This document shows positions 748 to 36,466 of a DNA stretch of 37,591 bases, piece after piece. Each line of letters opens with the position of its first letter. Position 1 is the first letter of the stretch. Made by a program: the position numbers and the translations under genes. Source of the DNA: Candidatus Nealsonbacteria bacterium (lineage in GTDB: Bacteria; Patescibacteriota; Minisyncoccia; Minisyncoccales; JAGMDC01); assembly GCA_030643485.1 (NCBI GenBank), contig DAOWLG010000001.1, positions 1 to 37,591 of the forward strand, in the 5' to 3' direction. A model generated the notes under the pieces. That model worked only from the letters and a program-made list of their open reading frames with translations. It was not told where the DNA came from and made no database searches.

Positions 748-934
748 AGTAAAAAGGTAGGAAAGTAAGAAAGTAAGAAAGTAAGAAAAATGGAGAAGTA
801 AGAAAGTAAGAAAAATGGAGAAGTAAGAAAAATGGAGATTTCTAAATTTCCTACTTTTCAAAAAAAAGTGGGAAAATTCAAAATTTTTTCCCACTTTTTA
901 GGATTTTTTCCTACTTTTTAGGATTTTTTCCCAC
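748..934. repeat. Dense short-repeat array in a 526-bp non-coding gap (iteron-like)
   Basis: GTAAGA(AA) x6 at 765, 773, 781, 798, 806, 823. AAAAATGGAGA x3 at 786, 811, 828. GT(A/G)GGAAA at 757 and 868, with its complement TTTCC(T/C)AC at 847, 887, 907, 927. A 20-bp tandem unit ttttttcc(c/t)actttttagga at 884, 904, 924. Confidence 0.85.
860..894 (-). terminator. Rho-independent terminator downstream of the 1444-aa gene
   Basis: Minus strand reads GTGGGAAAA-AATTTTGAA-TTTTCCCAC followed by T8: a 9-bp perfect stem plus U-tract. Confidence 0.65.
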
Positions 935-1221
935 TAAATTGGAAAAAATTTGATTATTTCGCGATTTAAGTTAATTTAAAAAAGCGGGGTATAAATATAC
1001 CAACATTTTTTTGAGACGCTTAAAACGATTTTTTGCATAGATTTAAGCGAATTTGCATAGATTTAGTTTTTATTTTTCCTCAAAAAAAGGTTAAAAATGT
1101 GAAGTTAAAGCCATTTTTGAAAATTAGGCGTTTAAAATTTAGCCAGGGGTATTTGTTCCTGGTGAATTTTTAAATCGCTTAAATCGAAGGAGAATGAAAC
1201 CAAAAATCCAAAATTGTTAAA

Positions 1222-5556: not shown

Positions 5557-5697
5557 ACTTTTTTTTAAAAAATTGCTTGCTTTTATGATAAAATTAATAT
5601 ATGATGTATTTGTCGGTTTTTGGGAGAAAGCCCTCTCACTTGATAATAAACCTTTTTTAAACCGCCACGGTAAAGAAGGTTTATTTTTTATATATTT

Positions 5698-14669: not shown

Positions 14670-15443
14670 TTAAGATCCCCGACGATTTACTTGATTTAGT
14701 TCTTTTGCGAACTCTTGATCAGACATTTTAGAAAAATCTTTTTTTATTGAGCCGTCAGAACGAGCTGATGTGCCGCCTGATTGTGATTCTTTAGCTTGTT
14801 TATCAGCATTTCTTGCTAGATGTGCGCCAATTTGTAATAAATCTTTGCCTGCGGCTGAATATGCAAGCTGCTCAATGGGAAGATTTTTATAAACGGGGTG
14901 TTTCCCCCATTTAATTATTTTTTTGTAGAAGGGTTTAAAAATAGGATTTTCTCCGACAAAATCTTTTGTGTCTTTTTCAAGTTGATTTATTTCTGAATTT
15001 TCTTGAGTTTGGCGTATCAGATCAAACTGGTCGCCATATTTATTTAATATATATTCATCAATCCGCTCTTTTTCTTTCTCTTCCAAACTTAAATTTGGGT
15101 TTTCTTCTCCCCGTCCTTCCAATTTAGCAATTTCTGCGTCCAATTCGGCTAGTTTTTTTGTTCCTGTTTTATTCTTCAATTTCTCTATTTTAGCTTGTTT
15201 TCGCTCAATTATATAAGCTAAATTATTTTTTCTTGTTGGAGGTTCTTCTCCTTCAGGGGGTGTTTGTTCTCCTTCAGGGGGTGTTTGTTCTCCTTCAGGG
15301 GGTGTTTGTTCTTCTCCTTCGGGGGGTGTTTGTTTTTCTCCTTCGGGGGGTGTTTGTTCTTCTCCTTCGGGGGGTGTTTGTTCTTCTCCTTCGGGGGGTG
15401 TTTGTTCTTCTCCTTCGGGGGGTGTTTGTCCTGGTTCTAACAT
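14670..15443 (-). CDS. Scaffolding protein with N-terminal QTPPEGE(E) tandem repeats
   Basis: 257 aa, charged and helical, located between portal and capsid genes. Eight or nine Pro/Glu-rich repeats at the N-terminus. Confidence 0.6.
   Translation of the reverse strand: MLEPGQTPPEGEEQTPPEGEEQTPPEGEEQTPPEGEKQTPPEGEEQTPPEGEQTPPEGEQTPPEGEEPPTRKNNLAYIIERKQAKIEKLKNKTGTKKLAELDAEIAKLEGRGEENPNLSLEEKEKERIDEYILNKYGDQFDLIRQTQENSEINQLEKDTKDFVGENPIFKPFYKKIIKWGKHPVYKNLPIEQLAYSAAGKDLLQIGAHLARNADKQAKESQSGGTSARSDGSIKKDFSKMSDQEFAKELNQVNRRGS
15241..15433. repeat. 21/24-bp coding tandem repeat (ggggg(g)tgtttgttct(tct)ccttc)
   Basis: About nine near-identical units visible in the sequence; they encode the QTPPEGE(E) repeats. 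Confidence 0.9.
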
Positions 15444-15771: not shown

Positions 15772-16092
15772 TCATTGTTTATTTTTTGATTTTTTAATTT
15801 CATCTACTTTATCAAAATAGGGGTCAGGATTTTTTATTTCTGTTTCTTCTTGTTGTAAAATTTTGAGATAATAATCAGGAAGATTAATTAAGCTTTGGTA
15901 TATTTTTAATCGATCTTTATCTCTATTTCTGTCTTCAAGAGTTTGATACTCTTTCGTCAATAAAAGTGATTTTAGATATTCTATATCATTTTTTTCTAAT
16001 AGTTCACAAACTAATTTCCAATTATCACTATTGTTAAGGATAGTTAATTTTTCTCTCAATTCTACTGCGTTTTTTAAATTTTGTAAAATCAT
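15772..16092 (-). CDS. Hypothetical protein downstream of portal
   Basis: 106 aa; its start overlaps the portal stop (ATGA). Confidence 0.5.
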   Translation of the reverse strand: MILQNLKNAVELREKLTILNNSDNWKLVCELLEKNDIEYLKSLLLTKEYQTLEDRNRDKDRLKIYQSLINLPDYYLKILQQEETEIKNPDPYFDKVDEIKKSKNKQ

Positions 16093-18032
16093 CGGACTGA
16101 TTGTAAAGTTCTAGGAGTATTAAAATCAGGTTTAGGTTGAGATTGTCCAGTCAACATTTTTTGTTGTAAAGACTGTTGTTCTTGCGCGGAGGCAAGTTTT
16201 TGTTCGGGCAAAATTTCTGGTTGTTCTCTTCCTATTAGCAAAGCTATTTTATGTGCTAATATATGGGCTTCCGTTGAGGCTGTAGGATTGGCCGCCTCAT
16301 GTATTTCCAAATGTAAATCGTGATTTTGCGACATTCTAATTTCAGCAGGTTTATTTTTATTCAAATTTTCATTCTCTTTTTCAGCTTCCCATTCATCAAT
16401 AGATTTGGGGAAAATTTTATTGATTTCATCTTGTCTTAATCCGCTTAGTTTGGCGTATTTTTTAAGAGCATATTTTCGATTAGCATTTGGGTCTTGAAGA
16501 ATATGAGCCAATAAATTAGAGAATTTTTGGAGATTTGCTAAATCTTTAGCTTCTGAAATAACTGTACTTTCAATTTTAATATCGGGATCAACTCTGGAAA
16601 TAATATTGTCTCTTAAAAGCGGTCGAAAGACAGTGTTGATTCCCTTGATTCTAATAATCTTTTTATCAATTTTTTCATTAAAATGTTTCTTGTATAAATT
16701 GTACCACTGACGCCAAAACCTTTTTTCTGACCACCCAAAAATTTTGGCTGATAAAGAGTAGCGGGTATCAACACCTTTAGCCGCTAAACTTAATTCTGTG
16801 GCGGTTCTTTGTACTTTTGTTATATTACCTTGTTGAATATCGGGAGTGGCGGTAGCGCCTTGGGCCGCAGCATCAAGCTCATTCAAAATCCATGTTGTGT
16901 CATTTTTTACAGTTTGTCTTGGCACTTCTGCCACTGCGCCACCAATATCTCCGTCAACAGGAATAGTTTTATTGAATTGAAATTTTGTTAAATCTGATCT
17001 GTTTTTTATTCTAGTTCTATCATATAAATACATGGGGTAAAGTCCGCATTTGATACCCTGTAACGTGAGATTCTGAATAGCAGCTCTTGCTCGTTGTTTG
17101 TCTTCAACCATATCTGGAACCGATACCGAATCCCAATTAAAAGGGACAGGATAAATAACTCTATCTTCGATTGGTATATACCGTCTTGTTTGGTCTTTGT
17201 TTGTCCACAATATTTTATATCCAACTACCAATGACCGATTGTTGGCTAAAGTAACCAAAACAAGTTTTCCTTTTTTCATAGTAAACCATTCCAGAAGATT
17301 ATACCCCTGGTTTTCTCCTTCTAGTTGTTCTTTTTTTGTATCGTAATTTAACCCTGCTGCTTCGTTTCTTGCTCTTTTTGCTTCCTGCTGGGGGTCATTA
17401 ATTGACGTATCGGTTTTAAGTTTGTTCAAATTAAAATAATTCCCTGTTGTTTCCAATTCCCATTTAGTAGCTTGGAAATAATAACCTATGAATCGGCATG
17501 ATCCTCGCCCTTTTTTATCTCCGTTCACGCTTGAGGCACGTGGATCATGAAGTAAAGACATAGGATCAAGATTTTCTGGGATAGGTGTTTTTGTGATTGA
17601 GTCGTATTCAAGAAGTTTAACAAAACCTCTCCCAAAAAAAGTTGCGTCCCAATTCCAAAAATAATCAGTGATTTCTTTTTCCATTTCGTCATAATCGAAT
17701 ACAGCTAAAGCATTCAAATTTTCTGCTGTTTCCTGGTCTCCGTCTTCTCTAGCAAGAAAATCAACCGATAATTTATCATCGTATAAAGACGCTAAAACTG
17801 TTTGATGAATCTTGAAGAGTAAGGGATCACCAATAGCTTCCTTATCTTTTTTTTGGTTATTATAAATTTTTAATCTAATTGTCCATTTATCCCATTTAGG
17901 TTTTTGAGCGTCGTAAGATAATTGATATTCAGAATTTACTTGTTTTATTAAATCAGTAAAATCCTGATTTGAGTAATCAGTTTTTTCGTAGATTTCTATC
18001 TGTTTATTTTTTTCAACTTCTTTTTTAGCCAT
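16089..18032 (-). CDS. Portal protein
   Basis: 647 aa. Size and position immediately upstream of the scaffold and capsid genes. Confidence 0.7.
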   Translation of the reverse strand: MAKKEVEKNKQIEIYEKTDYSNQDFTDLIKQVNSEYQLSYDAQKPKWDKWTIRLKIYNNQKKDKEAIGDPLLFKIHQTVLASLYDDKLSVDFLAREDGDQETAENLNALAVFDYDEMEKEITDYFWNWDATFFGRGFVKLLEYDSITKTPIPENLDPMSLLHDPRASSVNGDKKGRGSCRFIGYYFQATKWELETTGNYFNLNKLKTDTSINDPQQEAKRARNEAAGLNYDTKKEQLEGENQGYNLLEWFTMKKGKLVLVTLANNRSLVVGYKILWTNKDQTRRYIPIEDRVIYPVPFNWDSVSVPDMVEDKQRARAAIQNLTLQGIKCGLYPMYLYDRTRIKNRSDLTKFQFNKTIPVDGDIGGAVAEVPRQTVKNDTTWILNELDAAAQGATATPDIQQGNITKVQRTATELSLAAKGVDTRYSLSAKIFGWSEKRFWRQWYNLYKKHFNEKIDKKIIRIKGINTVFRPLLRDNIISRVDPDIKIESTVISEAKDLANLQKFSNLLAHILQDPNANRKYALKKYAKLSGLRQDEINKIFPKSIDEWEAEKENENLNKNKPAEIRMSQNHDLHLEIHEAANPTASTEAHILAHKIALLIGREQPEILPEQKLASAQEQQSLQQKMLTGQSQPKPDFNTPRTLQSVR

Positions 18033-18232
18033 TATTGAATAGGGTTTTTAGTTTTGAATCTTAAAACAATATTTTTTAATCCTTCAACTATTAAAAACAA
18101 TCCTGAAATCAAAGCTTCTATACCAATTTCGCCGCCTAAAAAAGAACTAATAGTTAAAATAAAACCTCCTACCAACTCTAAGATTCCTGACCATACTGTC
18201 CTTGATTTATACCATTTTTTTAGTTCAGGCAT
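18032..18232 (-). CDS. Small two-helix membrane protein (holin-like topology)
   Basis: 66 aa with two hydrophobic helices, VWSGILELVGGFILTISSFLGG and ALISGLFLIVEGL. Its stop overlaps the portal start. Confidence 0.45.
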   Translation of the reverse strand: MPELKKWYKSRTVWSGILELVGGFILTISSFLGGEIGIEALISGLFLIVEGLKNIVLRFKTKNPIQ

Positions 18233-18361
18233 TTTTTAAAAAATAAAGATATACGCAAGTATATTCACGATTAGAAAAATCAAAATCCCGCCAAAATACA
18301 AATAAATCACAAATTTTGCATAGTTTTCAGTATCAATGGGCGGATGTAACATTTTTTCAAG

Positions 18362-19063
18362 TTATTTTTTAATGATTATTATATGCCCGTAGTCTCCCCA
18401 TTTGGGCCCACCCCAAATTTTTTTTGGGATTTTTTTAATTTCAACTTTAAAATTTTTTATAAGTTTAGCATAATCTCTCACGTAAAGCCCTTCGCTAATA
18501 TTTCCTTTGGCTGAAAAATCTGGCGAATGAAATTCTAATAACACAATTTTCTTTTTTGTGATTCTGTAAAACTGATTCATAACTTCCTGGATTTTATCCG
18601 GGCCGATGTAAAGCAGCGTCGCACAAGTAAAAGTTACATCATAGCTATCATCAGGGATAGCTTTTAAAGCTTCTATTCCACCTTCAAACAAATGAACGTT
18701 TGTAACATTATTTTCCCTTAACTTTATTTTTCCGTCTTTGATAGCCTCGCTGCAAATATCCACTCCGCTTATTACCAGATTCTTTTTCTTTGTCTTTTTT
18801 GCGATCAAATACAAATTTATTCCGCTATTACATCCAAACTCAAAAAAACTGTTATTTTTGTAAACTTTTAAATGGTCAATTAGAAATTTCTTGCTTGGAT
18901 GATTTTCATGATCAAAAAATGTTGAGTCTTTTCTATTTTTCCAGTATTTAACGAATCTCTTCGTTTTTCCTAATTCAATATATTTATCTTGAATTTTGTA
19001 ATAAAAAAGGTTTTTTAAAAAATCAAACAATTTTGGAAAATATTTTTTTAAAATTTTCTTCAT
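18362..19063 (-). CDS. Class I SAM-dependent methyltransferase (not an obvious DNA methyltransferase)
   Basis: 233 aa. Motif I FFEFGCNSGINL, acidic post-I ISGVDICSEAI, then FTCATLLYIGPDKI. No DPPY/NPPY or PCQ motif. Confidence 0.7.
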   Translation of the reverse strand: MKKILKKYFPKLFDFLKNLFYYKIQDKYIELGKTKRFVKYWKNRKDSTFFDHENHPSKKFLIDHLKVYKNNSFFEFGCNSGINLYLIAKKTKKKNLVISGVDICSEAIKDGKIKLRENNVTNVHLFEGGIEALKAIPDDSYDVTFTCATLLYIGPDKIQEVMNQFYRITKKKIVLLEFHSPDFSAKGNISEGLYVRDYAKLIKNFKVEIKKIPKKIWGGPKWGDYGHIIIIKK

Positions 19064-19065
19064 AT

Positions 19066-19839
19066 TTAATTAAAAGTTTTTCGGCCGCGTTTGTAAAGAT
19101 TCCGAATTTGTGTCGCGTTTAACTCAATATCGTAATTACGAAATCCCCCTAGTTCGCCTAGAAAATCGTTTTTGTATAAAGATTGAACTTGATTCCATTG
19201 TGCCCCTAGTATAGTTTTACAGTTAGCATTATAAAAATTCCCTGATAAAGGCAAAAATGAGACTATCAAACTTTGTGCCACATATATTCCGTCCACATAT
19301 ATTTTAGGATTATTTCCAGCCCCATCGTACGAATAAACTGTGTGATGCCAATTGCCATCACAGAAACTATCAGTAGTTCTAATTAGCCTGTATTTTCCTC
19401 CTGCATGACAATAAATTAAAATATCTAGTTTTTCATCTACATTTAGCGTTGTAATAATATGGCCATTAGAATTGTTATCAGCAATTGCAAATAATGTGTA
19501 GCTAATGGCATCGTCTTTAGATGATTTGAACCAAAGCTCAAAAGTAAAAGGAGTACTATCTGTATATTGAAAATTTGCATTATTAAAAACAATTCTATCT
19601 CTGTCGCCATAAACTTCTCCATGTCCTCCGTCGAAAGTATAAGCGGATTTTCCAGAGCTTAAATTAAATCGTCCCATTTGGGTGGTTGCGCCTGTTACCG
19701 CTCCATTAGTAGAGCCACAACTATCATTAGCATTATTATCAAAAATATAACAATTTATTAAAGCTGCATGGGCAAATCCCAGTTTTGCAAAAATTAATAA
19801 AAAAGCGATGATTAAACAAATTTTTAATTTTTTCAACAT
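19066..19839 (-). CDS. LamG / concanavalin A-like lectin-fold protein with Sec-type signal peptide
   Basis: 257 aa. N-terminus MLKKLKICLIIAFLLIFAKLGFAHA. FTFELWFKS ... GNWHHTVYSYDGAGNNPKIYVDGIYV is a typical laminin-G-3 pattern. Confidence 0.65.
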   Translation of the reverse strand: MLKKLKICLIIAFLLIFAKLGFAHAALINCYIFDNNANDSCGSTNGAVTGATTQMGRFNLSSGKSAYTFDGGHGEVYGDRDRIVFNNANFQYTDSTPFTFELWFKSSKDDAISYTLFAIADNNSNGHIITTLNVDEKLDILIYCHAGGKYRLIRTTDSFCDGNWHHTVYSYDGAGNNPKIYVDGIYVAQSLIVSFLPLSGNFYNANCKTILGAQWNQVQSLYKNDFLGELGGFRNYDIELNATQIRNLYKRGRKTFN

Positions 19840-19850
19840 TGAAAGAAAAC

Positions 19851-20066
19851 TTAAGTAACCGTTATGTTTAAAAGATTGTTTTTTTCTGTTTCAAGCGTAG
19901 ATAAAGCTGCAAGAAGAGCGTCTTTAGTATTTTTGTTCTCAGCTTCTTTCGCGGCTTGAGCAATTTCTCCTGCTTCCACTTTTTGAGCAGATAACTGATC
20001 AAGTTTTTTCTGTATAGCTTCAATTTTTTGTTCAATTGTAGCTTCAGGATTAAATTGGATAGCCAT
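19851..20066 (-). CDS. Small coiled-coil protein
   Basis: 71 aa, Ala/Glu/Lys/Gln heptad-like sequence. Confidence 0.45.
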   Translation of the reverse strand: MAIQFNPEATIEQKIEAIQKKLDQLSAQKVEAGEIAQAAKEAENKNTKDALLAALSTLETEKNNLLNITVT

Positions 20067-20089
20067 TTTTTTATAAAGTTAAAAGGTAA

Positions 20090-20371
20090 TTAAGTAAATT
20101 TTACAATACTCCATCTTTCAGAAAAAAGGTCTAAAGGAGACGGCCAATATGGCATTTTTGTATATCCGTCTTTTTCGCCTTTGCAAGAAAGATTGAAATA
20201 AATATAAGATGTTGTCATTTTACTATTTTTATCACGTTTTTGCATTTCTAGAAACATTTTTGTTGAATCCCAATCCAAATTTGTTACTTTTTCTCCTTTT
20301 TTTAATTTTAGCAAAGCTTCTGAAAAATCAAATACGGCTACATCTTGGTCTTGATTGTTATTTGTACACAT
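20090..20371 (-). CDS. DUF2829 / Tad2-like small protein (candidate anti-Thoeris nucleotide sponge)
   Basis: 93 aa. FSEALLKLKKGEKVTNLDWDS at the N-terminus and PYWPSPLDLFSERWSIV at the C-terminus match the DUF2829 pattern (FgeAl..lk.Gkkv.R.gW ... W.ps..DllaeDW.iv) as I remember it. Confidence 0.55.
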   Translation of the reverse strand: MCTNNNQDQDVAVFDFSEALLKLKKGEKVTNLDWDSTKMFLEMQKRDKNSKMTTSYIYFNLSCKGEKDGYTKMPYWPSPLDLFSERWSIVKFT

Positions 20372-20404
20372 AAATTTTAAAAAGTTAAAATAATAAAAAT
20401 ATTA

Positions 20405-22504
20405 TTAAGTAGCAAATATTGCGGTGTTTGGGATATACCAACAAGAAAATCTGATTGATCCTCCTGCAATAGTCGAACCAACTTGATCGCAAAAAAACTG
20501 TATTCTATCCCCTAGGTTTAACCCCGTTCCTGTTGAGGGTCTGTCATAAGTACTATCATTCGCGCTTGCCGATACAGAAATTTTGCTTGAGTATGTCGTT
20601 GTTCCATTTTTGTGAAGATCGAATAGTCCAGCCGCACCAGTTGGCGCGGTATCCACTCTAACCTGACACCCCAAAAGCAATCCGTCGTCTTTTAACCTCT
20701 GGGTTCCCATAGCATTAGACGAATCAGCAACAGCTGTTAATTCATCTGTGTATTGTAAAACTTCCGCATTTTCATCCGCAAATTTAATTGTAAGCGTATC
20801 ATTAAAAAGATCTTGTTGAGCAAGGATTGTGATTTCTGTGTTGGTGGTATAAGCCGAATCAATAACAACTCCATAGAAAATTTTGGCGCCAGAATTGGTA
20901 ATTTTTAACAATTTTCCAGCTGGAAATAATTCAGTAACATCCGCGCTACTGACATACGCCACGGTTGCGCCTGAATACGTGGTAGTAACACCGTCATCAT
21001 TCCAAAATGCCGCGCTTCCGCCTGCGCTTGCTGCCCATTCGGGAGCTGTTGCGCCTGCATTCATGGTGAGGACTTGCGTTGCTGTCCCTTTGGCAAGCCT
21101 TGTTAGTTTATTAGAATTTCTGTAATAAACATCTCCGTCCACGTCGCTTCCCAGACTCATAGTTACATCGGCCACGGCTGCGCCTGTCGATAATGTACCG
21201 CTAGTTACTGTCCCAATTTTTGAAATTGTTCCTAATAAATTTGTCCAAGTGATTTTGTTGTTATGCCCGCCTGTATCATCATAAAAAATAAATTCATCCG
21301 CGGCCGCTAAGGTATCAGCAGCTTCCCCGTTGATGTTTAGCGCTATTGTAACAGTATCGGTAGCCCCTACCGTAGTAGTTATCGCACTACCGCCTGTAAT
21401 TGTAATTGTATTTTTGTCGTTGATAGTTTGGTTGGCCCCGCCGTCTCCTGCCAACGTAAGATCATTGAAACTAGCTGTCCCTCCAATATATATTGTATCT
21501 CCGTTAATCGTAGTAGCAACCTGGCCACTTCCCGCAATGGTTAAAATATCAGTTGTTGAATCTGCTGTTGTGCTTCCCAAATCTCCTGTTATAGTAGCCC
21601 AAATATTTTGAGCGCCTGCCACTGAAATAAACTCAAGAGCATTTTCGGCGGCATTTACGGAAACGACTTTTCCCCCGCTTCCTGTAAAAACCGAAGGGGT
21701 ATCAGTCAAAGCTAAAAAAGTGGTTGCACCTGTTGCACTCGCCAAAATATCTGTATCTGTCCCAGCTGAATCTTTGAAAAAAAGTTTTGTGATTCCTGCT
21801 ACATCTTTTGTATATAATCTTGCTTTATTTGCTGCTGGATTCGCGGGCGCTGCAATTTCTGAAAACTCAACAAAAGAATCTAAAAGCTTGATACCTTCCG
21901 CTAATATTCCGTTATTGGTGGTATATTCAAGGATTGTATCAACTAATAAATTCCCGGATAAAGTTAAGCCTGTAAACCCAGGGCTTACACTCCCCCGCAA
22001 ATCTTGAGAAATGAAAGTATGATCTGTCCCATCGCTTGATACATGGGTATATGCTGAATCATAATTTGTTTTTAGCGCTGCAGTTAGATTTTTTTCACTT
22101 CTAACGAAATTAGCGCCGTCATCAATATCATCAATCGTCGCGCCTGTCCCTACCTGTCCGCTTGTTCCTCTCAAAATTCCTGATAAAGCTTGAACATGAA
22201 AAGTACTATCAATATTTACACCGCTCCCCGCTGTCTTTTCCTGGATATGATCGACCAATAAGGGATCTAAAGCTGCTCCGCTGAACGTCGAAACATCCAA
22301 AACGTCAAAATATCCGTTTATTCTATCCGAAGGATCACCAACGGAAAAACTTCGAATCGGTTTAACTGCGGATTTTCCTGAAATTTTAACCCAATAATCT
22401 TGGATTGATCCCGTGATTGATCGCGCATAAACAGGCGTCATAATCCCGGCAAAAAAACTCAAAAGAAAAAGAAGTACAACACAAAATTTTTTAAATTTGC
22501 TCAT
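20405..22504 (-). CDS. Large fibre/adhesin-like protein with Sec-type signal peptide
   Basis: 699 aa. N-terminus MSKFKKFCVVLLFLLSFFAGIMTPVYA-RS. The remainder is Thr/Gly/Ala/Ser-rich beta-type sequence. Confidence 0.5.
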   Translation of the reverse strand: MSKFKKFCVVLLFLLSFFAGIMTPVYARSITGSIQDYWVKISGKSAVKPIRSFSVGDPSDRINGYFDVLDVSTFSGAALDPLLVDHIQEKTAGSGVNIDSTFHVQALSGILRGTSGQVGTGATIDDIDDGANFVRSEKNLTAALKTNYDSAYTHVSSDGTDHTFISQDLRGSVSPGFTGLTLSGNLLVDTILEYTTNNGILAEGIKLLDSFVEFSEIAAPANPAANKARLYTKDVAGITKLFFKDSAGTDTDILASATGATTFLALTDTPSVFTGSGGKVVSVNAAENALEFISVAGAQNIWATITGDLGSTTADSTTDILTIAGSGQVATTINGDTIYIGGTASFNDLTLAGDGGANQTINDKNTITITGGSAITTTVGATDTVTIALNINGEAADTLAAADEFIFYDDTGGHNNKITWTNLLGTISKIGTVTSGTLSTGAAVADVTMSLGSDVDGDVYYRNSNKLTRLAKGTATQVLTMNAGATAPEWAASAGGSAAFWNDDGVTTTYSGATVAYVSSADVTELFPAGKLLKITNSGAKIFYGVVIDSAYTTNTEITILAQQDLFNDTLTIKFADENAEVLQYTDELTAVADSSNAMGTQRLKDDGLLLGCQVRVDTAPTGAAGLFDLHKNGTTTYSSKISVSASANDSTYDRPSTGTGLNLGDRIQFFCDQVGSTIAGGSIRFSCWYIPNTAIFAT

Positions 22505-22510
22505 ATTTTT

Positions 22511-22804
22511 TTAGGCGTTAATTAAGGCTATTTGATTATTCGTTCCGCCGTTAGAAATTAAATTAAATACGGGGTATTCTTCCCCCGTCCATACATATTC
22601 TCCATTAGCGGCGGGGATAAGAATACCGCTACCAACTACAGCCGTATCGTCCAATTCCAGGTATATATCATACGAAGCATGAGTATTTTGTAAGGTTACA
22701 CTTTTTTTTCCAGGCAAAGAAATATGCTTGGCAAAAACTGTTTTTTGCGCGGCAGATAGCAAAGAGGTTAATTCTGAACTTGTCGCGGGGACAGAAATGA
22801 GCAT
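22511..22804 (-). CDS. Hypothetical small beta-rich protein preceding the 699-aa gene
   Basis: 97-aa ORF, separated from the downstream gene by 6 nt. Confidence 0.45.
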   Translation of the reverse strand: MLISVPATSSELTSLLSAAQKTVFAKHISLPGKKSVTLQNTHASYDIYLELDDTAVVGSGILIPAANGEYVWTGEEYPVFNLISNGGTNNQIALINA

Positions 22805-22832
22805 AAGATTTTTTAAAAATATCTTTTATAAT

Positions 22833-23603
22833 TTATTCATAACACAAAAACAAAAAAAAGGAAAATATTATTTTTTTTTTGTGTTTTTGAGTTTTCAAAA
22901 ACTCTTTCTTGTAAAAATCACAGCAAGAAAAAAAACTTGTAATATTTGTAGGATTATCGATTTTTAAAGTTTTATTGATTATTTTTTCAGAATATTTTTG
23001 AAAAACAAAGCTGGTTAAACCTTCTGGAGATTTTACTCCTTCTTTTTCTGAAAACCATTTTTTTAAAACTTCAAAATTTTTTCTTTGGGGGGTAAGGGGG
23101 GGTTCTTTAATATTCTTTATATTCTTATACCCTTCTTGAATGTGTTCACTTTTTGTTCGTTTGTTGTTCACTAGTTGTTCAGTCTTTTGATATTTGTTCC
23201 AATTCACTATATGTATAAGCCTAAATTTATTAAAAGTTTGTTGTTCAATTTTTGTTCGTTTGTTGTTCACTAGTTGTTCACTTTTTTGATATTTTTTCCA
23301 ATTAACTATATGTATAAGCCTAAATTTATTGAAAGTTTGTTGTTCAATTTGTTGTTCGATTTCGAGGTATTTCAAAATTCTTTCAATTTTACTCTCGTTA
23401 ATACCTGAAATTTTAGCTAATTTTTTTCGTCCAGTTATAAATTCACCTAGCCTTAATTTATTTTTTTTACTATTAAATATGAAGAATTGTTTTTTTTGGT
23501 GATTGGCTAGTATTAGTAAAAGAAGCCACAAAGCTAAATATTCTGGTTTTTTAGAAATTACATTTGTTAAAATTTTACGATGTAGTTTAATCCAGCCTTG
23601 CAT
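22833..23603 (-). CDS. Phage replisome-organizer / replication-initiator-like winged-helix protein
   Basis: 256 aa. MQGWIKLHRKIL ... GEFITGRKKLAKISGINESKIERILKYLEIEQQIEQQT ... RLIHIVNW.KYQ resembles the N-terminal domain of Firmicutes-phage replisome organizers. It contains a duplicated 33-aa segment. Confidence 0.6.
   Translation of the reverse strand: MQGWIKLHRKILTNVISKKPEYLALWLLLLILANHQKKQFFIFNSKKNKLRLGEFITGRKKLAKISGINESKIERILKYLEIEQQIEQQTFNKFRLIHIVNWKKYQKSEQLVNNKRTKIEQQTFNKFRLIHIVNWNKYQKTEQLVNNKRTKSEHIQEGYKNIKNIKEPPLTPQRKNFEVLKKWFSEKEGVKSPEGLTSFVFQKYSEKIINKTLKIDNPTNITSFFSCCDFYKKEFLKTQKHKKKIIFSFFLFLCYE
23151..23348. repeat. 2 x 99-bp tandem duplication inside the replisome-organizer-like gene, rich in TTGTTCA (TGAACAA) iterons
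   Basis: Unit starts at 23151 and 23250, with only a few mismatches. Encodes EQQTFNKFRLIHIVNW(K/N)KYQK(S/T)EQLVNNKRTK twice. Confidence 0.9.
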
Positions 23604-23633
23604 TTACTTTTATTTTTATATTTAAAAAGCCCT

Positions 23634-23753
23634 CCTTCAAAAAAGGAAAACCAAAGTTAAATTAAGTTGCGAGACAACTTTTAAGAGAGGAGAGCTTTTT
23701 AAATACAAAAAACTTTGGTATTTTTTATTATCTCGCATACAAACTTTTGAAGG
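23634..23753. promoter_or_regulatory. Nested inverted repeats in the terminase/replication intergenic gap (structured element)
   Basis: ccttcaaaa 23634-23642 pairs with ttttgaagg 23745-23753. ccaaagtt 23651-23658 pairs with aactttgg 23711-23718. aagttg 23664-23669 pairs with caactt 23675-23680. gcgaga (23670-23675, spanning the hairpin loop) is complementary to tctcgc at 23731-23736. Confidence 0.5.
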
Positions 23754-23829
23754 TATTTTTTAATTATCTCATTTTTTAAAAAATTTGTCCATATTTTTAA
23801 GGATATGACTGATTTTGTCCCCCTCTCTT

Positions 23830-25278
23830 CTAATACGGATCACTAAGAGGAATATCAGAATCAGAGAAATCATTTTCTTTTTCCATTTCTCGAAATTGGG
23901 GTTTTTGGATTAAACATCTGCCCAAATTTTCAATAAAATGGTCATCTTTATCGACAGGTTTTTCTTTCGCTCCTTTTTTATTTCTGGCTTTACCAACCCA
24001 ATTGTCCCACCTGTATCGCTCCACTTCCCAAATCATTTGTTTACAATTATCAAAAAAGTAAAGTTGAGGTGGTTTTTGCATAAATCCGCCTAGTTCCTGA
24101 AAATTTAGAGCGTTAGCAATACATCTATCAGCTGTGCTTCTAAATTTTGTTGCTTTTTGATAATGCAAGCCTTTTTCACTCAAAATTTTAGCTAAAGAAT
24201 TGTTAGAATCACCTCTATGTTGATCTTCATTGAAAGCGGCAGGATCGGCCAGCCGCTTAACAATTCTGAATTGAGAGGCTTTATTTTTGATTCGTTGGGC
24301 TAATTCATCAAATTTGCCAAAAACGTTAATGCTCAATTCATCAACAACAAAAATTGTTCCTTTGCGGTCGATAGCAACCCAAAGCACAGCATCGGGGTGG
24401 CGCGGGTGAGGGTCAAGCATTTCCCACACAACATAATTTTCCATAGTGATATCAAACGGTTTAATCACATGGATTTTTCTTGAAAATTGTTTAAAAATAA
24501 TTCCTGTTAAATGTTGATATTTCCCAAAAATTCTTGCTTGTTTATCTTCTTCGGAATATTGAGAGATCATTAACTCAATATTTTGTCTGCTTAGTTGTCC
24601 TCTTGTTCCTGGAATATCTTTACAGGCGCTCCATACGTCGGCTTGGACATAAGCTCTTTTTCCTTTTTCGTTATTTGTATTACAGATAATTTCATCATAC
24701 AAAAAAATTGAATTTGAGCCGATAGGAGTTTCCGTAATAAACATTCTTCCCCCCATACGTAGCCGTGAAATATTGGCTTTATAAATAGCCTCAGGGCAAG
24801 GCTCGTCTAAAAAGCACCACCCCAAATCAACACTCTCAAATTCTTTGGTTTCTTGATCATAAGTCATCAAATCAAAACTAAAAGCTGTATCCATTTTCCA
24901 AAAATACTCATAATTTTTACCTTTTTTTTCGGTTGTGTATCTTCCTTCAGGCAACCATTTTTTAAGTTCAGGTATGATTTTTTCTTGTATATTTGTTGGA
25001 TCAGAAACGATCCTCCCACGCTTGATATATGGCCAATCTAGCCATAGCGGTGTTTGAAAATATTTATTGCCACACGGAAAAAACAAATGTGCGAGCATAT
25101 TAACAGCGGTCGCGGTTTTTCCAATACCGTTAGCCGCTGAATATAACGTTATAAACCACTCATTACTACCAACCAAATCAATAAACTCTTCTCCCTTGAC
25201 TGTTGGAATAAAATACCTATATTTTTCCTTTTCTAGTCTATATAATTTTTCTTTTTTCAGCTCTTGTGTATCAGTCAT
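23830..25278 (-). CDS. terL: Terminase large subunit
   Basis: 482 aa. Walker A-like NGIGKTA, Walker B-like WCFLDEP, C-terminal acidic nuclease-type region. Preceded by a small-terminase-like gene. Confidence 0.85.
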   Translation of the reverse strand: MTDTQELKKEKLYRLEKEKYRYFIPTVKGEEFIDLVGSNEWFITLYSAANGIGKTATAVNMLAHLFFPCGNKYFQTPLWLDWPYIKRGRIVSDPTNIQEKIIPELKKWLPEGRYTTEKKGKNYEYFWKMDTAFSFDLMTYDQETKEFESVDLGWCFLDEPCPEAIYKANISRLRMGGRMFITETPIGSNSIFLYDEIICNTNNEKGKRAYVQADVWSACKDIPGTRGQLSRQNIELMISQYSEEDKQARIFGKYQHLTGIIFKQFSRKIHVIKPFDITMENYVVWEMLDPHPRHPDAVLWVAIDRKGTIFVVDELSINVFGKFDELAQRIKNKASQFRIVKRLADPAAFNEDQHRGDSNNSLAKILSEKGLHYQKATKFRSTADRCIANALNFQELGGFMQKPPQLYFFDNCKQMIWEVERYRWDNWVGKARNKKGAKEKPVDKDDHFIENLGRCLIQKPQFREMEKENDFSDSDIPLSDPY

Positions 25279-25488: not shown

Positions 25489-26022
25489 TTAAGTTGCTTC
25501 CAAAAGTTTTTGATTCAGTTCTTCATCGCTTAAATTAGAGTAAGGTCTAGGAGAAATCTCATGTTTTTCGGGCGCAAAATCACCGCGTAACCTAAAAACA
25601 AATTCTAAGGCTGATTTAACTGAAAAAGTGTCGGGTCTTTCTGATTCAATCATGCTCAATTTCTTTTTATTTCCTTTAAATTCTATTTTTTTGATCAACT
25701 CATTTTTGTCTAGAAGCGCTTTCAGTTTTTTCGCCAAAAATTTTTCATCTATCCCGACTTGATCAAGTTCGGCGATTAGGGCAGTCGGAAAAATTTTAGT
25801 TATTTCTTTTTCTAACCGTGATTGAAAATTTTGGCTCCTATATCCTGCAATTTTTAAGGCAGCTCTCCCTGTATGCCCGTTCAATTTTGCTGCGACATAT
25901 CGAGCTTGTCTTGGGTTTAGTTTATTTTCTTTCTTTTTAAACGTTTTTGCTTTCTTCTTTAATATGTCAACTTTGGCAAGAATGGCCAAAGTTTTTGCGG
26001 GAAAGATTAAATTTTGAGACAT
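25489..26022 (-). CDS. terS: Terminase small subunit
   Basis: 177 aa. LNPRQARYVAAKLNGHTGRAALKIAGY resembles the HTH of Terminase_2-type small subunits. Located upstream of terL. Confidence 0.65.
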   Translation of the reverse strand: MSQNLIFPAKTLAILAKVDILKKKAKTFKKKENKLNPRQARYVAAKLNGHTGRAALKIAGYRSQNFQSRLEKEITKIFPTALIAELDQVGIDEKFLAKKLKALLDKNELIKKIEFKGNKKKLSMIESERPDTFSVKSALEFVFRLRGDFAPEKHEISPRPYSNLSDEELNQKLLEAT

Positions 26023-27293: not shown

Positions 27294-27444
27294 TATTGAT
27301 TTTATTTAGAAAATTTTTAAATTGTGTTGGTTTAAAATTTCCACAAACAGTACAAGGTTCACATACCCAAAACTCCCCCGTTAATCCAATTTTTTTAGCA
27401 CAATCTTCACAAATTGCATAAGTTTCTTGAGCTATTTTTTCCAT
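27280..27444 (-). CDS. Small zinc-ribbon protein
   Basis: Starts at the internal Met MEKIAQETYAICEDCAKKIGLTGEFWVCEPCTVCGNF; has CxxC and CxxCxxC motifs. Confidence 0.4.
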   Translation of the reverse strand: MEKIAQETYAICEDCAKKIGLTGEFWVCEPCTVCGNFKPTQFKNFLNKINNEKP

Positions 27445-28171
27445 TATCAAAAATATTAAAAAATAATTTAGCTTCATCTCTGATTTCCCAATTTTCATCT
27501 GTTTTTGTTTTTTCTGGAAACCCTAAAGTTCTAAAAGCCTCAAGCCTAATTGTGCAATCTTCATCTTTTTTTGCTTTTTCCGTAAATCCTAAATTTCGAT
27601 AAGCTGCTAATCTGATATCAGTGTCTTTATTTGATTTTGCTTTTTCATCAAAACCTAAAATTCTAAAAGCTTCAAATCTGATTTTATAAAAAACATCGGA
27701 TTTTGCTTTTTTCGTAAAGCCTAAAATTCTAAATGCTTCGAGTCTAATTCCCCAATATTCATCTTTTTTAGCTTCTTCGGTAAAGCCTAAAATTCTAAAA
27801 GCTTCAAATCTAATATCAATGTCTTTATCTGATTTTGCTTTTTCATCAAACCCTAAAATCCGAAAAGCTTCAAATCTAATATCAGTGTCTTTATCTGATT
27901 TTGCTTTTTCATCAAAACCTAAAATTCTAAAAGCTTCAAGCCTAATTGTGCAATCTTCATCTTTTTTTGCTTTTTCCGTAAATCCTAAATTTCGATAAGC
28001 TGCTAATCTAATTTCCCAATTTTCATCTTTTTTTGCTTTTTCTGTAAAACCTAAATTTTTAAAAGCTTCAAATCTGATTTCATCGTTTTTATCTTTTTTT
28101 GCTTCTTTTGGAAAAAGGCTTATACAAGCTAGTTTTTCTTGAAAAGTTAAATCTTCATATTTTTTTTTCAT
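27407..28171 (-). CDS. Tandem 22-aa repeat protein (HEAT/PBS-lyase-like), paralog A
   Basis: 254 aa with about nine units of consensus KAK(K/S)D(E/K)(D/N)x(E/D)IR(L/F)EAFR(I/N)LGF(T/D)E. The D..xIRxxAxxxLG core resembles PBS-lyase HEAT-like repeats, but the period is 22 aa. Confidence 0.6.
   Translation of the reverse strand: MKKKYEDLTFQEKLACISLFPKEAKKDKNDEIRFEAFKNLGFTEKAKKDENWEIRLAAYRNLGFTEKAKKDEDCTIRLEAFRILGFDEKAKSDKDTDIRFEAFRILGFDEKAKSDKDIDIRFEAFRILGFTEEAKKDEYWGIRLEAFRILGFTKKAKSDVFYKIRFEAFRILGFDEKAKSNKDTDIRLAAYRNLGFTEKAKKDEDCTIRLEAFRTLGFPEKTKTDENWEIRDEAKLFFNIFDNGKNSSRNLCNL
27541..28009. repeat. 66-bp coding tandem repeats, including an exact 73-bp duplicate
   Basis: 27541-27613 is identical to 27937-28009, an offset of 396 bp (6 x 66). 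Confidence 0.9.
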
Positions 28172-33355: not shown

Positions 33356-33988
33356 TTATATTTGATATTTTTTGCAAAACGCTTGGATATAATCGGCTTT
33401 TTCTTGGTATTGTTTTGTCCCGATTTTTCTAGCTATTTTTTTAATTTTGGAAAATAAGTCCGCCTCATCTTGAATCCAATACCATTCCTTTTTCAACGCT
33501 TTCTTCGTAAATCCTAAAATCCGATAAGCTTCAAGTCTGATTATGCAATCTTCATCTCTTTTTGCTTCTTCGGTGAATCCTAAATTTCTAAAAGCTTCTA
33601 ATCTGATACTAGGGTCTTCATCTGTTTTAGATTTTTCATTAAATCCCAAATTCCTAAATGCTTCTAACCGAATCTTGTAAAGAACGTCTCTTTTTGCTTC
33701 TTCGGTGAATCCTAAAACTCGATAAGCTGCGAGTCTGATTTCCCAATTTTTATCTTTTTTTGCTTTTTTATCAAACTCTAAATTTCTAAATGCTTCTAAC
33801 CGAATTTTATAAAAAACATCGGATTTTGCTTTTTTCGTAAAGCCTAAAATTCTAAAAGCTTCTAATCGAACTTCATCGTTTTTATCAATTTTAGCTAATT
33901 TCGGAAAAAATTTTATTCCAGCCATTTTTTGAAAGCGGTCTAAAGAAAACCAAAATTTTTGTTTTTCGGTTGGGAATAATACGCACAT
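33356..33988 (-). CDS. Tandem 22-aa repeat protein (HEAT/PBS-lyase-like), paralog B
   Basis: 210 aa with about seven units of the same consensus as 27407-28171. An exact 53-bp stretch (33804-33856) is shared with 27681-27733. Confidence 0.6.
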   Translation of the reverse strand: MCVLFPTEKQKFWFSLDRFQKMAGIKFFPKLAKIDKNDEVRLEAFRILGFTKKAKSDVFYKIRLEAFRNLEFDKKAKKDKNWEIRLAAYRVLGFTEEAKRDVLYKIRLEAFRNLGFNEKSKTDEDPSIRLEAFRNLGFTEEAKRDEDCIIRLEAYRILGFTKKALKKEWYWIQDEADLFSKIKKIARKIGTKQYQEKADYIQAFCKKYQI

Positions 33989-36130: not shown

Positions 36131-36466
36131 TTAAGCAACTTGTTTTTCGGAGAACAAGTAAGCGATAGGAAAAAACTCAATATCCTTTTGGTCTTCTTCT
36201 TTTATTCCTTCTTTTTTTTCTTTAAATTTACGGGGTTTACCCCAGATTGCATTACCTTTTTCTCCTTTTTTTACTTGTTTTCCCTCTTTTTTCCAATTTA
36301 AAAAGGATTTTAAAATTTTAACCTTTAATTCCTTTTTATAAAAATCTATAATAATAGAATTGACGGTTTTTCCCATACAATTTGGATTGACCAACTTAGT
36401 TTTTTTCGCAAACATTGATAGTTTTTGAAGTTTCAGCCGAACAGCTGAATTTTTCGTGTTTTTCAT
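36131..36466 (-). CDS. First sizeable early gene; ArdC-N / DUF1738-like ssDNA-binding domain protein (candidate anti-restriction)
   Basis: 111 aa. LKSFLNWKKEGKQVKKGEKGNAIWG ... FPIAYLFSEKQV resembles the TFxQWxxxGxxVKKGEKG core of the ArdC N-terminal domain. This is a memory-based match. Confidence 0.35.
   Translation of the reverse strand: MKNTKNSAVRLKLQKLSMFAKKTKLVNPNCMGKTVNSIIIDFYKKELKVKILKSFLNWKKEGKQVKKGEKGNAIWGKPRKFKEKKEGIKEEDQKDIEFFPIAYLFSEKQVA

Follow-up and report, generated by a model that had tools for sequence, protein, structure and literature searches.

A variable terminase-portal interval of a podovirus-like phage encodes a fibre-like and a LamG protein with predicted Sec signal peptides

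T5 Llp, lambdoid Cor and lambda Lom are Sec-exported morons that lie beside receptor-binding or fibre genes, are expressed late and act in the envelope on the phage's own receptor. They are small (60-200 aa) and bear no relation to fibres; Llp carries a lipobox. The PblA and PblB proteins of the Streptococcus mitis phage SM1 are fibre-like adhesins on the bacterial surface; they have no signal peptide, reach the surface after holin/lysin release and are also parts of the virion. Signal-peptide endolysins form an established class, for example Lys44 of the Oenococcus phage fOg44. SPP1 G38P and lambda O are replisome organisers whose origin sits within their own gene. Hypervariable hot spots of phage genomes, those of P2 and P4 among them (PMC9122126), hold morons and, between conserved structural genes, anti-defence or defence islands.

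We analysed a window of 37,591 bp from an uncultivated phage of a cold seep. In this window, the genes for the terminase large subunit (TerL; 23830-25278, minus strand; phrog_2, 4e-15) and the portal protein (16089-18032, minus strand; PF23899 SU10_portal, 2.8e-20; phrog_1216, 1.5e-13) are separated by 5,797 bp (18033-23829). TerL shares 29% identity with the large terminases annotated in Manatee Spring phages, and 37-54% with its counterparts in the 59 related loci where a portal gene is present as well. The initial annotation had listed eight ORFs in this gap, and we find all of them on the minus strand, as stated, with every domain call reproduced. A ninth ORF, of 38 aa (18236-18352), had escaped the list, and the span of 18362-23603 given for the island stops short of the 66-aa gene and does not take in the intergenic DNA at its flanks. 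All genes of the interval and the features described below are on the minus strand, the strandless tandem repeat excepted. The 226-bp intergenic region after TerL (23604-23829) holds a 24-nt inverted repeat (23613-23636 and 23688-23711), two copies of GGTATTTTTTA and a candidate sigma-70-like site, the best of the region, at 23791-23763; the sigma-70 type may not be that of the host.

As at the P2/P4-type hot spots, the junction is fixed and carries different cargo in related genomes, and a single anti-defence gene with a short direct repeat is gained or lost. Unlike those hot spots, it lies between terminase and portal of a podovirus-like uncultivated lineage, and its cargo includes a replication initiator and a fibre/lectin cassette predicted to be exported, not defence systems. 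Comparing 52 non-redundant related loci, we found terminase-portal gaps of 102-3,068 bp (median 780) and none of the interval's genes at the junction in any of the 52, which agrees with the earlier description of the region as accessory and variable; other small conserved genes and endonuclease-like ORFs occupy these gaps instead. The RepOrg, 97-aa, 71-aa and methyltransferase genes have homologs in none of 89 related loci, and the remaining interval genes gave four weak matches there, all elsewhere in those loci. In L013, the nearest relative on capsid comparison, other genes fill the junction over at least 5.9 kb. With a GC3 of 0.19-0.35, the interval genes stay within the range of the phage itself, and the region is thus not foreign in composition.

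The gene next to TerL encodes a DnaD-like or replisome-organiser-like (RepOrg) protein of 256 aa (22833-23603; phrog_2514, 1.3e-30; 17.9 bits against PF09681, under the cutoff of 23.3). A 99-bp tandem repeat of 2.2 copies lies inside it (23143-23358; TRF score 381, 94% matches; repeat families D1-D2) and is iteron-like, being rich in TTGTTCA/TTGTTCG heptamers. Searching the window's other ORFs, we found no second replication initiator. RepOrg, which had been counted as island cargo, is the phage's only recognisable one, and together with the repeat array in its own coding sequence it probably represents the initiator and candidate origin. Like SPP1 G38P and lambda O, it combines a DnaD-like N-terminal domain with direct repeats in the coding sequence; unlike them, it sits between terminase and portal rather than in the early region, its PF09681 match is sub-cutoff and its origin is putative. 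A 97-aa protein follows (22511-22804; weak phrog_30212 match, 0.02), 6 nt upstream of the 699-aa gene. The small proteins that L013 encodes at this place do not resemble it.

The DUF2829 protein of 93 aa (20090-20371) is a Tad2-family member, as first called, with PF11195 above its cutoff (2.8e-11; 44 bits against 25), and it aligns end to end with the SPO1 Tad2 structure 8sme. The main ligand contacts of SPO1 Tad2 are W25, N26, W73 and D79 (bioRxiv 10.1101/2023.05.01.538930); three of these four are identical here (W34, W76, D81), and N26 is replaced by D35. It shares the single-domain architecture of about 90 aa with SPO1 Tad2 (gp34.65, an anti-Thoeris gcADPR sponge; bioRxiv 10.1101/2023.05.01.538930; PDB 8sme), whereas its pairwise similarity to solved Tad2 proteins is weak (phmmer E = 0.04) and there are differences at several water-coordinating positions (H71 to P, D67 to Y, T78 to L). 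By blastn break points, the gene lies in an indel (20075-20390) with the 10-bp direct repeat TTTTAACTTT at both ends (about 20381-20390 and 20075-20084). In the sibling (L090/L091, ~96% identical) the repeat is single and the Tad2 gene is missing, and the indel separates genomes from adjacent samples of one study. The Tad2/DUF2829 gene is thus a single-gene moron, present as a clean indel, whose product would trap gcADPR-type Thoeris signals in the cytoplasm.

One cassette, kept within a sub-lineage, comprises the genes for the 699-aa protein, a 71-aa coiled-coil protein and the LamG protein, then a variable slot and the gene for a 66-aa membrane protein. L092 keeps the order 699-aa/71-aa/LamG/66-aa at 41-68% identity, and L093, a short contig, keeps only the 71-aa-LamG pair. 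The whole block is not common to all relatives, the situation in which the initial annotation would have taken it for a conserved structural module, although its four-gene core is kept within the sub-lineage. The 71-aa gene (19851-20066) is always directly upstream of the LamG gene, at the same position in L090/L091 (99% identity), L093 (48%) and L092 (41%). The 66-aa protein (18032-18232) has two membrane helices by hydropathy and is 94% identical in L090 and 57% in L092; the stop codon of its gene overlaps the portal start (TAATG). In L060 a homolog (38% identical) follows an Amidase_2 endolysin gene at a distance of 1 nt, and on this ground the 66-aa protein is predicted to be holin-like. 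The 38-aa ORF, with one TM helix read from the sequence, is intact in L090 with 4 aa changes and absent in L092.

In the variable slot lies a class I SAM-dependent methyltransferase of 233 aa (18362-19063; Methyltransf_25/31/11/12, 1e-8 to 1e-11), whose sole homolog found is the sibling copy. The (D/N/S)PP(Y/F/W) motif is absent from its sequence and, as had been proposed, it is not a DNA methylase; it would work on some non-DNA substrate. Unrelated ORFs take up the slot in relatives, encoding a 120-aa TM protein (L092) or a 132-aa protein (L093), while the LamG gene stays, so the adjacency of methyltransferase and lectin that had first drawn attention is incidental.

The 699-aa protein (20405-22504) consists of a predicted signal peptide (aa 1-27; nt 22424-22504), an orphan region (aa 28-90), fibre shaft modules and a C-terminal domain, and it clusters alone. 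It matches phrog_677 (2e-7) and cyanophage gp9 baseplate connectors; 119 partial matches have in common aa 424-500, at 70-86% identity, and aa 240-420, and aa 90-240 recur as repeats in 234 proteins. Its aa 90-500 are a mosaic of the modules found in cyanophage (T4-like) gp9 and DUF2793-type 'GD.YYR...L..G..GQVLT' fibres, with local identity up to 86%. It differs from these fibres in that a Sec-type N-terminal signal replaces the virion-attachment domain, and its gene is not in the tail module but between terminase and portal. Among 1.8e9 representatives, aa 1-90 have almost no relatives, apart from P0001 itself and a few matches overlapping part of aa 31-90 (for example P0195), and hence no conserved virion-attachment domain is visible. 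Some fibres with these shaft modules, P0189 and P0056 among them, begin instead with a recognisable KISQL-type N-terminus. The copies of the protein recovered are identical or N-terminally truncated, and the C-terminal half is 97.5% identical in L090 and 68% in L092.

The LamG protein (257 aa; 19066-19839; PF13385 Laminin_G_3, 2e-15) is a pentraxin-like jelly-roll protein. Its residues 1-25 (nt 19765-19839) are a predicted signal peptide, and Cys30 and Cys41 are an invariant pair. It has the highest Cys content among 20 window proteins tallied, the virion proteins having 0-0.6% Cys. Its AF2 model, of low confidence, resembles pentraxins and toxin receptor-binding jelly rolls.

Both large proteins begin with a basic n-region, a hydrophobic core of 14-16 residues, a helix breaker and small residues at -3/-1, and cleavage is predicted between VYA and RS in the 699-aa protein and between AHA and AL in the LamG protein. 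They are the only minus-strand ORFs of more than 110 aa, among those of at least 50 aa, with a signal-like N-terminus. In three LamG homologs (P0121-P0123, 43-47% identity) the signal sequence has diverged, yet the n/h/c features remain and the -3/-1 rule is obeyed; predicted cleavage falls in register before a mature N-terminus that is conserved, (A/S)L(I/V)NCYIFDN, followed by the invariant Cys pair. Judged from this conservation in diverged homologs, the Sec signal peptides of the initial annotation look genuine, and both proteins would be exported; their hydrophobic N-termini could also serve as uncleaved anchors. Like Llp, Cor and Lom, the pair bears signals predicted for export and is linked to fibres, but it is larger (699 and 257 aa), is built of fibre modules and a LamG fold, and has neither a lipobox nor sequence similarity to them. 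With PblA and PblB it shares a fibre-like nature and a surface location, here predicted, whereas those two have no signal peptide; the likeness is one of kind.

Signal-like N-termini occur in 30 of 116 proteins (~26%) that share the fibre motif of the 699-aa protein. In all six phage contigs checked, the signal-bearing motif proteins lead runs of signal-peptide, lipobox or TM genes within structural operons, and none of the virion genes upstream of these runs has a signal. A LamG domain is fused to the motif protein or lies within the next two genes in four of the six.

We give about an even chance to the reading that the terminase-portal junction is, in this podovirus-like lineage, a slot prone to recombination, that this phage has gathered there a composite of four independently evolving pieces, and that the exported pair masks the receptor. 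The pieces would be a DnaD/RepOrg-like initiator with its iteron-like array; a late cassette of the 699-aa, 71-aa and LamG genes, the variable slot and the 66-aa gene; the Tad2/DUF2829 single-gene moron; and the non-DNA SAM methyltransferase occupying the variable slot. Late in infection, Sec would carry the 699-aa and LamG proteins into the cell envelope, where the signal peptides would be removed and the proteins may attach to glycans of the envelope or to the receptor that the phage itself uses. Receptor masking would be the likeliest outcome, leading to superinfection exclusion and keeping progeny off the debris of lysed cells, as T5 Llp and the Cor/Lom-type morons do. Against an exclusion role, neither protein has homology to known exclusion proteins, a lipobox or a type IX secretion C-terminal domain, and in siphovirus-type contigs the signal-bearing proteins take up several kb in total at the classical tail-fibre position, which is much for exclusion.

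While exported receptor- or glycan-binding proteins remain our leading reading, its main rival is that the two are true virion parts. As accessory tail, neck or head fibres they would make up a host-range cassette with the 71-aa protein as chaperone, and their hydrophobic N-termini would be uncleaved assembly helices, or export signals with periplasmic maturation and attachment at or after lysis. The fibre/baseplate mosaic, common to more than 100 fibre-like proteins and to cyanophage baseplate connectors, argues for this and against the leading reading, as does the place of the gene in a late structural operon, tightly packed with head genes. So does L013, whose junction carries a non-homologous cassette of ordinary fibre-like genes that have no signals. 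Five of the six other contigs place the signal-bearing homologs after tape-measure and distal-tail genes, where tail fibres are expected, and P0007, P0016 and P0076 each unite a LamG domain with these fibre motifs in one polypeptide. A small cytoplasmic coiled coil after a fibre gene, such as the 71-aa protein, resembles fibre-assembly chaperones and would argue for cytoplasmic folding, and the signal-bearing motif proteins show no Cys enrichment over the others (p = 0.22), which also speaks against export. On the other hand, virion assembly is cytoplasmic, we found no literature precedent for tailed-phage fibres with Sec signals, and the phage's other large tail proteins are signal-less. The signal features are kept under divergence, as for a working export signal, and the nearly unshared aa 1-90 offer no conserved attachment domain. 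We therefore regard virion fibres as possible but rather unlikely.

It is improbable that the cassette is a lysis or egress module, in which the exported proteins would act from the periplasm on envelope or capsule polymers, binding or loosening them, and would release progeny together with the 66-aa and 38-aa proteins. In its favour, the 66-aa homolog of L060 adjoins an endolysin gene. Small TM and lipobox proteins of holin/spanin type follow the signal-bearing fibre/LamG genes in L104-L107 and L109, aa 321-411 of the 699-aa protein have a weak beta-helix-like match to pectinesterase (E = 0.0085), and signal-peptide endolysins do exist as a class. However, no catalytic domain was detected in the 699-aa or LamG protein, the LamG model looks like non-catalytic lectin-type jelly rolls, and the window's candidate endolysin, an M23 peptidase (144-695), is 17 kb from the cassette.

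The initial annotation had raised, as one option, a single export-dependent surface-remodelling system of all eight genes; in such a system the methyltransferase would modify a glycan read by LamG. The methyltransferase does adjoin LamG in the window and in the sibling, and its best NCBIfam match, the pseudaminic-acid-associated methylase TIGR03587 (1e-15), hints at a sugar substrate, but at 58 bits this match is far under the cutoff of 112. Synteny already disfavours such a unit, which we hold to be very improbable: the genes fall into four separate parts, with Tad2 a lone, independent indel, the methyltransferase slot variable beside constant LamG neighbours, and RepOrg a replication gene. 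There is equally little chance that the signal-like N-termini are start-codon or chance artefacts of ordinary cytoplasmic proteins, for although no Shine-Dalgarno sites were found to fix the starts of the genes, the 699-aa and LamG starts lie 6 and 11 nt past upstream stop codons, the next Met residues are at 22 (within the signal) and 56, independent gene calls on the source contig agree, the features persist in the three diverged LamG homologs, and the AF2 predictions place helices at the N-termini (residues 2-18 and 2-29).

Returning to the reading of an exported receptor- or glycan-binding pair, the pattern of a fibre- and lectin-like pair with predicted export, for which no function has been described, recurs in other phages.

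All genes of the window lie on the minus strand of a tailed-phage genome segment, which comes from a scaffold of 40,455 bp in the metagenome of a South China Sea cold seep (sample RS_19, PRJNA707313). Rechecking the ORFs against Pfam and PHROG, we found the inventory of genes that the initial annotation had placed between the terminase gene (TerL) and the portal gene to be correct. Its coordinates did not hold, as the 66-aa gene had been left out, and the full interval runs from 18033 to 23829 (5,797 bp). Upstream lie a small-terminase-like gene (25489-26022; phrog_51, weak) and TerL (23830-25278; phrog_2). They are followed by a DnaD/replisome-organiser-like gene (RepOrg, 22833-23603), a 97-aa ORF (22511-22804) without family evidence, a 699-aa ORF with fibre motifs (20405-22504), a Tad2-like/DUF2829 gene (20090-20371), a 71-aa coiled coil (19851-20066), again without family evidence, the gene of a 257-aa LamG protein (19066-19839), a 233-aa class I SAM methyltransferase (18362-19063), a 66-aa two-helix membrane protein recognised by hydropathy (18032-18232) and the portal (16089-18032; PF23899). 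Downstream of the portal are the scaffold, major capsid (phrog_1357, 9e-75) and tail genes. The putative scaffold protein (14670-15443) opens with about eight tandem QTPPEGEE repeats. No match was found for the window in Rfam, or for the region by megablast against GenBank phages. The idea that the island is compositionally foreign DNA was rejected, with the GC3 of its genes falling inside the phage's own range; codon position 2 accounts for the elevated GC of the 699-aa gene. In the early region, two proteins (27407-28171 and 33356-33988) are built of HEAT-like repeats ('IRFEAFRILGF(D/T)EKAK.DKD'), and the second matches Pfam HEAT_2. A 111-aa ORF outside the island (36131-36466) weakly matches an anti-restriction family (phrog_7245, 3.5e-5) and could be a second anti-defence gene.

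With the portal and capsid proteins, we retrieved 89 related loci from IMG/VR and located the window's proteins in them. TerL was within reach in 22 of the 24 loci having at least 6 kb upstream of the portal. The TerL-portal gap measured 102-3,068 bp (median 780) across the 52 non-redundant loci with both genes, so the 5,797 bp of the window is unusual, as had been proposed. None of the window's eight island genes was found at this junction in any of the 89 loci. Other genes occupy it there. A conserved family of ~95 aa ('YKGCPIYYRNF..FEYLT..YTAHI') sits in the gap of 35 loci (e.g. L014 5594-5902 and L004 4066-4371), another of ~100 aa ('LP.IK.W.VG..Y') lies directly upstream of the portal in 13 loci, and HNH/NUMOD-like endonuclease ORFs occur sporadically; the window has none of these. 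The nearest relative by capsid (L013, 68%) carries a different cassette of ~6 kb (753-6699) directly upstream of its portal. This cassette encodes three signal-less fibre-like proteins (215, 278 and 831 aa), of which the 831-aa one has E1_FCCH-like and tail-tube-like domains, together with a C92-peptidase-like protein and small coiled-coil and beta-rich proteins. The island proteins show no similarity to the L013 fibre cassette. The TerL-portal junction is a cargo slot of this lineage, and only two of its fillings, that of the window among them, reach such a size. One related locus (L089, 4534-6891) has a 785-aa terminase of a different type, which, judging by sequence alone, appears to be interrupted by an intein/homing-endonuclease-like insertion.

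Searching with the LamG protein, we obtained three homologs (94, 47 and 43% identical). Two sibling contigs from the neighbouring sample RS_18 (L090 and L091, ~96% DNA identity to the window) hold the C-terminal part of the 699-aa gene, the 71-aa, LamG, methyltransferase and 66-aa genes and the portal, and lack the Tad2 gene. By its break points, this difference is a clean indel comprising the Tad2 ORF and one intergenic spacer; in the window, TTTTAACTTT flanks it on both sides, and the sibling has a single copy. A more distant contig (L092) keeps the order of the window with the C-terminal half of the 699-aa protein (68%), the 71-aa (41%), LamG (43%) and 66-aa (57%) proteins. The methyltransferase position is taken by an unrelated 120-aa TM protein in L092 and by an unrelated 132-aa protein in L093. 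Because of the gene content of these four contigs, we distinguish a conserved core (699-aa, 71-aa, LamG, a slot, 66-aa) from two swappable single genes. The synteny comparison with related phages that had been called for therefore shows a variable island: Tad2 is an indel, the slot differs in L092 and L093, and the junction of the wider relatives is without these genes. We conclude with high confidence that the island is composite and not one system. The region belongs to a known kind, the cargo hot spots of phages, and carries a putative anti-defence moron.

The Tad2-like protein scores above the cutoff for PF11195 (E = 2.8e-11, 44.2 bits vs 25; residues 15-90 on profile positions 2-73 of 73), upholding its first assignment, and by sequence is a member of the DUF2829/Tad2 family. 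It aligns end to end with SPO1 Tad2 (8sme). The main gcADPR contacts of SPO1 Tad2 are W25, N26, W73 and D79 (bioRxiv 10.1101/2023.05.01.538930). Three of them are retained as W34, W76 and D81, and N26 is replaced by Asp (D35); the secondary SPO1 residues H71, D67, T78 and T65 differ. Tad2 proteins bind gcADPR as homotetramers and block Thoeris, and the window's protein may act as such a sponge.

The methyltransferase carries SAM-binding motifs (EFGCNSG). Neither motif IV, (D/N/S)PP(Y/F/W), nor PC...ENV is present in its sequence, and its Pfam matches are to generic class I small-molecule or protein methyltransferase families only; the absence of DNA-methylase motifs is thus borne out. A PDB sequence search likewise returned generic methyltransferases, and PADLOC gave a single generic methyltransferase-domain match, mad2. 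The best curated match, to the pseudaminic-acid-biosynthesis-associated methylase TIGR03587, reaches 58.4 bits, far below the cutoff of 112; it hints at a sugar substrate but does not place the enzyme in that family. A homolog search found the sibling copy alone, and adjacency of methyltransferase and LamG genes is not conserved.

RepOrg matches phrog_2514 (1.3e-30), while PF09681 scores 17.9 bits, below the 23.3 cutoff. It is the sole recognisable replication initiator in the window, and we count it among the core genes despite its unusual position, and not as cargo. Within the gene lies a 99-bp x 2.2 tandem repeat (23143-23358), which carries many TTGTTCA/TTGTTCG heptamers and encodes a duplicated 33-aa segment. 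The repeat looks like an iteron array, a candidate origin inside the initiator gene, with the layout expected from SPP1 G38P and lambda O, whose origins lie inside their initiator genes. The stretch after TerL (23604-23829) has a 24-nt inverted repeat (23613-23636 / 23688-23711, 92% complementary), two copies of GGTATTTTTTA (23717 and 23752) and the region's best sigma-70-like site.

A Shine-Dalgarno site was seen in 0 of the 39 window genes, and their leaders are A-rich. An octamer, TTAA[GC]TTT, stands 15-18 nt upstream of six late-gene starts (Tad2, 71-aa, LamG, scaffold and two others); the direct repeat at the borders of the Tad2 indel consists of it as well. The Bacteroidota-type promoter motif (TTTG...TAnnTTTG) had no informative placement. 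The MAG bins of capsid relatives are contradictory (Bacteroidia, Bacteroidales, Parcubacteria and several others). Because of the missing Shine-Dalgarno sites, alongside these bins, we lean towards a Bacteroidota host; our argument does not rely on it.

Canonical Sec signal peptides had been proposed for the 699-aa and LamG proteins. Our signal-peptide calls are heuristic, made from sequence features and conservation in homologs. The N-termini read MSKFKK-FCVVLLFLLSFFAGIM-TPVYA|RS in the 699-aa protein and MLKKLK-ICLIIAFLLIFA-KLGFAHA|AL in the LamG protein (bar, predicted cut). Both show the Sec/SPI features (basic n-region, hydrophobic core of 10-16 residues, helix breaker, small residues at -3/-1), with three basic residues, a core of 14-16 residues, Pro or Gly at -4/-5 and V-Y-A| or A-H-A|. 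No other window ORF above 110 aa has such an N-terminus. The start codons lie 6 and 11 nt past the upstream stops, and an independent gene caller agrees with them. In the three LamG homologs, the signal sequences differ (MFKRFLFLGFLSLFFVVGVTNA|A... and MLTFPKIIKKILVGVFLLFLLPIGISQA|S...) and the architecture is the same, P0122 and P0123 showing the features retained as the sequence diverges; the predicted cut aligns with (A/S)L(I/V)NCYIFDN, the strongly conserved beginning of the mature protein, after which an invariant Cys30/Cys41 pair follows. Such a pattern, with architecture kept and sequence diverged, is expected of a functional export signal and difficult to account for in another way. 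The proposal thus gains support from these homologs for the LamG protein; for the 699-aa protein, the database copies were solely identical or N-terminally truncated, with no diverged full-length homolog found. The predicted cleavage sites of the two proteins have no lipobox Cys, and Pfam and NCBIfam gave no match in either to a type IX secretion C-terminal sorting domain, which would matter only in a Bacteroidota host.

The LamG protein matches PF13385 (2.1e-15) and is predicted to be a lectin-type jelly roll. Its low-confidence AF2 model was built on 4 sequences (pLDDT 54) and is used for the jelly-roll class alone; with it, Foldseek ranked pentraxins and the receptor-binding jelly rolls of toxins highest (E about 1e-8). 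We detected no match of the protein to a catalytic family, and none by PDB sequence search. Scanning with a LamG profile, we found no match in IMG/VR and two remote matches only in metagenomes. With modest confidence, we suggest that the conserved cassette encodes exported envelope-binding proteins, most plausibly masking a receptor or a surface glycan. This role would resemble that of Llp, Cor and Lom, signal-peptide morons encoded beside fibre genes; the two proteins gave no PHROG, Pfam or PADLOC match to superinfection-exclusion families of the Llp/Ltp type.

Nearly as likely, the 699-aa and LamG proteins may be real virion fibres, either with an uncleaved hydrophobic N-terminus or with periplasmic maturation and attachment at lysis. 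The 699-aa protein, unique as a whole, is a mosaic of fibre modules. Its residues 424-500 ('GDVYYRNSNKLTRLAKGTATQVLT...PEW') are found at 70-86% identity in about 100 proteins, residues 240-420 recur in 10-25 proteins, and residues 90-240 are repeats present in 234 proteins. Residues 278-347 match the gp9 baseplate connectors of T4-like cyanophages, and the C-terminal domain is common to P0056, a collagen-repeat fibre with a KISQL-type N-terminus. For residues 1-90, a search of 1.8 billion representatives yielded hardly any relatives, and the protein resembles neither the window's tail proteins nor the L013 fibres; no N-terminal attachment domain shared with fibres of related phages was recognised. 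Performing tblastn with the 699-aa and LamG proteins, we recovered solely a module of 60-70 aa, present in gp9 proteins of cyanophages and in a single gut phage without annotation. An AF2 model of the 699-aa protein (54-row alignment) has a mean pLDDT of 48.6 and a pTM of 0.25, and a PDB sequence search returned a weak pectinesterase stretch and nothing else.

A lysis-accessory role of the cassette is less likely than either envelope masking or a fibre. The 66-aa protein at its end has two hydrophobic segments (about 13-33 and 34-50) and a basic C-terminus, KNIVLRFKTKNPIQ; by size, TM segments and charged C-terminus, it is holin-like. The gene of its sole homolog among the 89 loci (in L060, 38% over 61 aa) follows an Amidase_2 endolysin gene (PF01510, 1.7e-22) at a distance of 1 nt. 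In the window, the M23 peptidase gene (144-695) is not beside the 66-aa gene, whose stop overlaps the portal start. Between the methyltransferase and 66-aa genes, we also read from the sequence a 38-aa ORF with one TM helix (18236-18352), which the initial annotation did not list; it is intact in L090 with four amino acid changes and absent from L092. Disfavoured is the original proposal of one surface-remodelling module that includes the methyltransferase, given the synteny against it, with the slot swapped in L092 and L093 and Tad2 an indel.

Proteins with such a signal and the fibre motif recur in unrelated phages. Signal-like N-termini were present in 30 of the 116 complete proteins sharing the fibre motif (26%). 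We inspected the neighbourhood of six such proteins on phage-sized contigs. Five of the genes lie directly after tape-measure and distal-tail genes of siphovirus-type genomes, and the sixth follows the capsid gene in a P22-like genome. Each of the six signal-bearing genes opens a series of genes for further proteins of signal-peptide, lipobox or TM type, and the upstream virion genes are without these features; a LamG domain is fused or encoded within the next two genes in four. On these six unrelated contigs (L104-L109), blocks of two to six consecutive such genes follow the tail or capsid genes, and L108 (10001-18841) has four signal-peptide/lipobox/TM-type proteins of 278-984 aa in a row. 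Because of this recurrence, we regard the window cassette as an example of a more widespread module that combines a signal peptide, a fibre motif and a LamG domain. Our literature search found no paper on signal-peptide-bearing phage fibres or on this module. Cys enrichment, taken as a proxy for export, was not significant in the signal-bearing over the other fibre-motif proteins (p = 0.22). A split of the homologs between signal peptides and KISQL-type adaptors was unsupported, adaptor-type N-termini being too few.

Thus, the terminase-portal junction is identified as a cargo slot in a widespread lineage of uncultivated ~40-kb phages. The Tad2-like gene offers a clean natural case in which an anti-defence cassette of one gene is gained or lost, at a defined repeat of 10 bp, inside a single environmental population. 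The replisome organiser, the methyltransferase and the holin-like protein are otherwise ordinary genes. We put forward, only tentatively, that phages commonly encode Sec-exported fibre-module/LamG proteins as an undescribed functional class, which would be either periplasm-matured fibres joining the virion only at lysis or exported copies of receptor-binding modules, hiding the receptor on infected cells and on their debris. If the signal-bearing fibre/LamG proteins are truly exported, then either the sites of folding and attachment of phage fibres are not fully understood, or phages export copies of their own receptor-binding hardware for exclusion.
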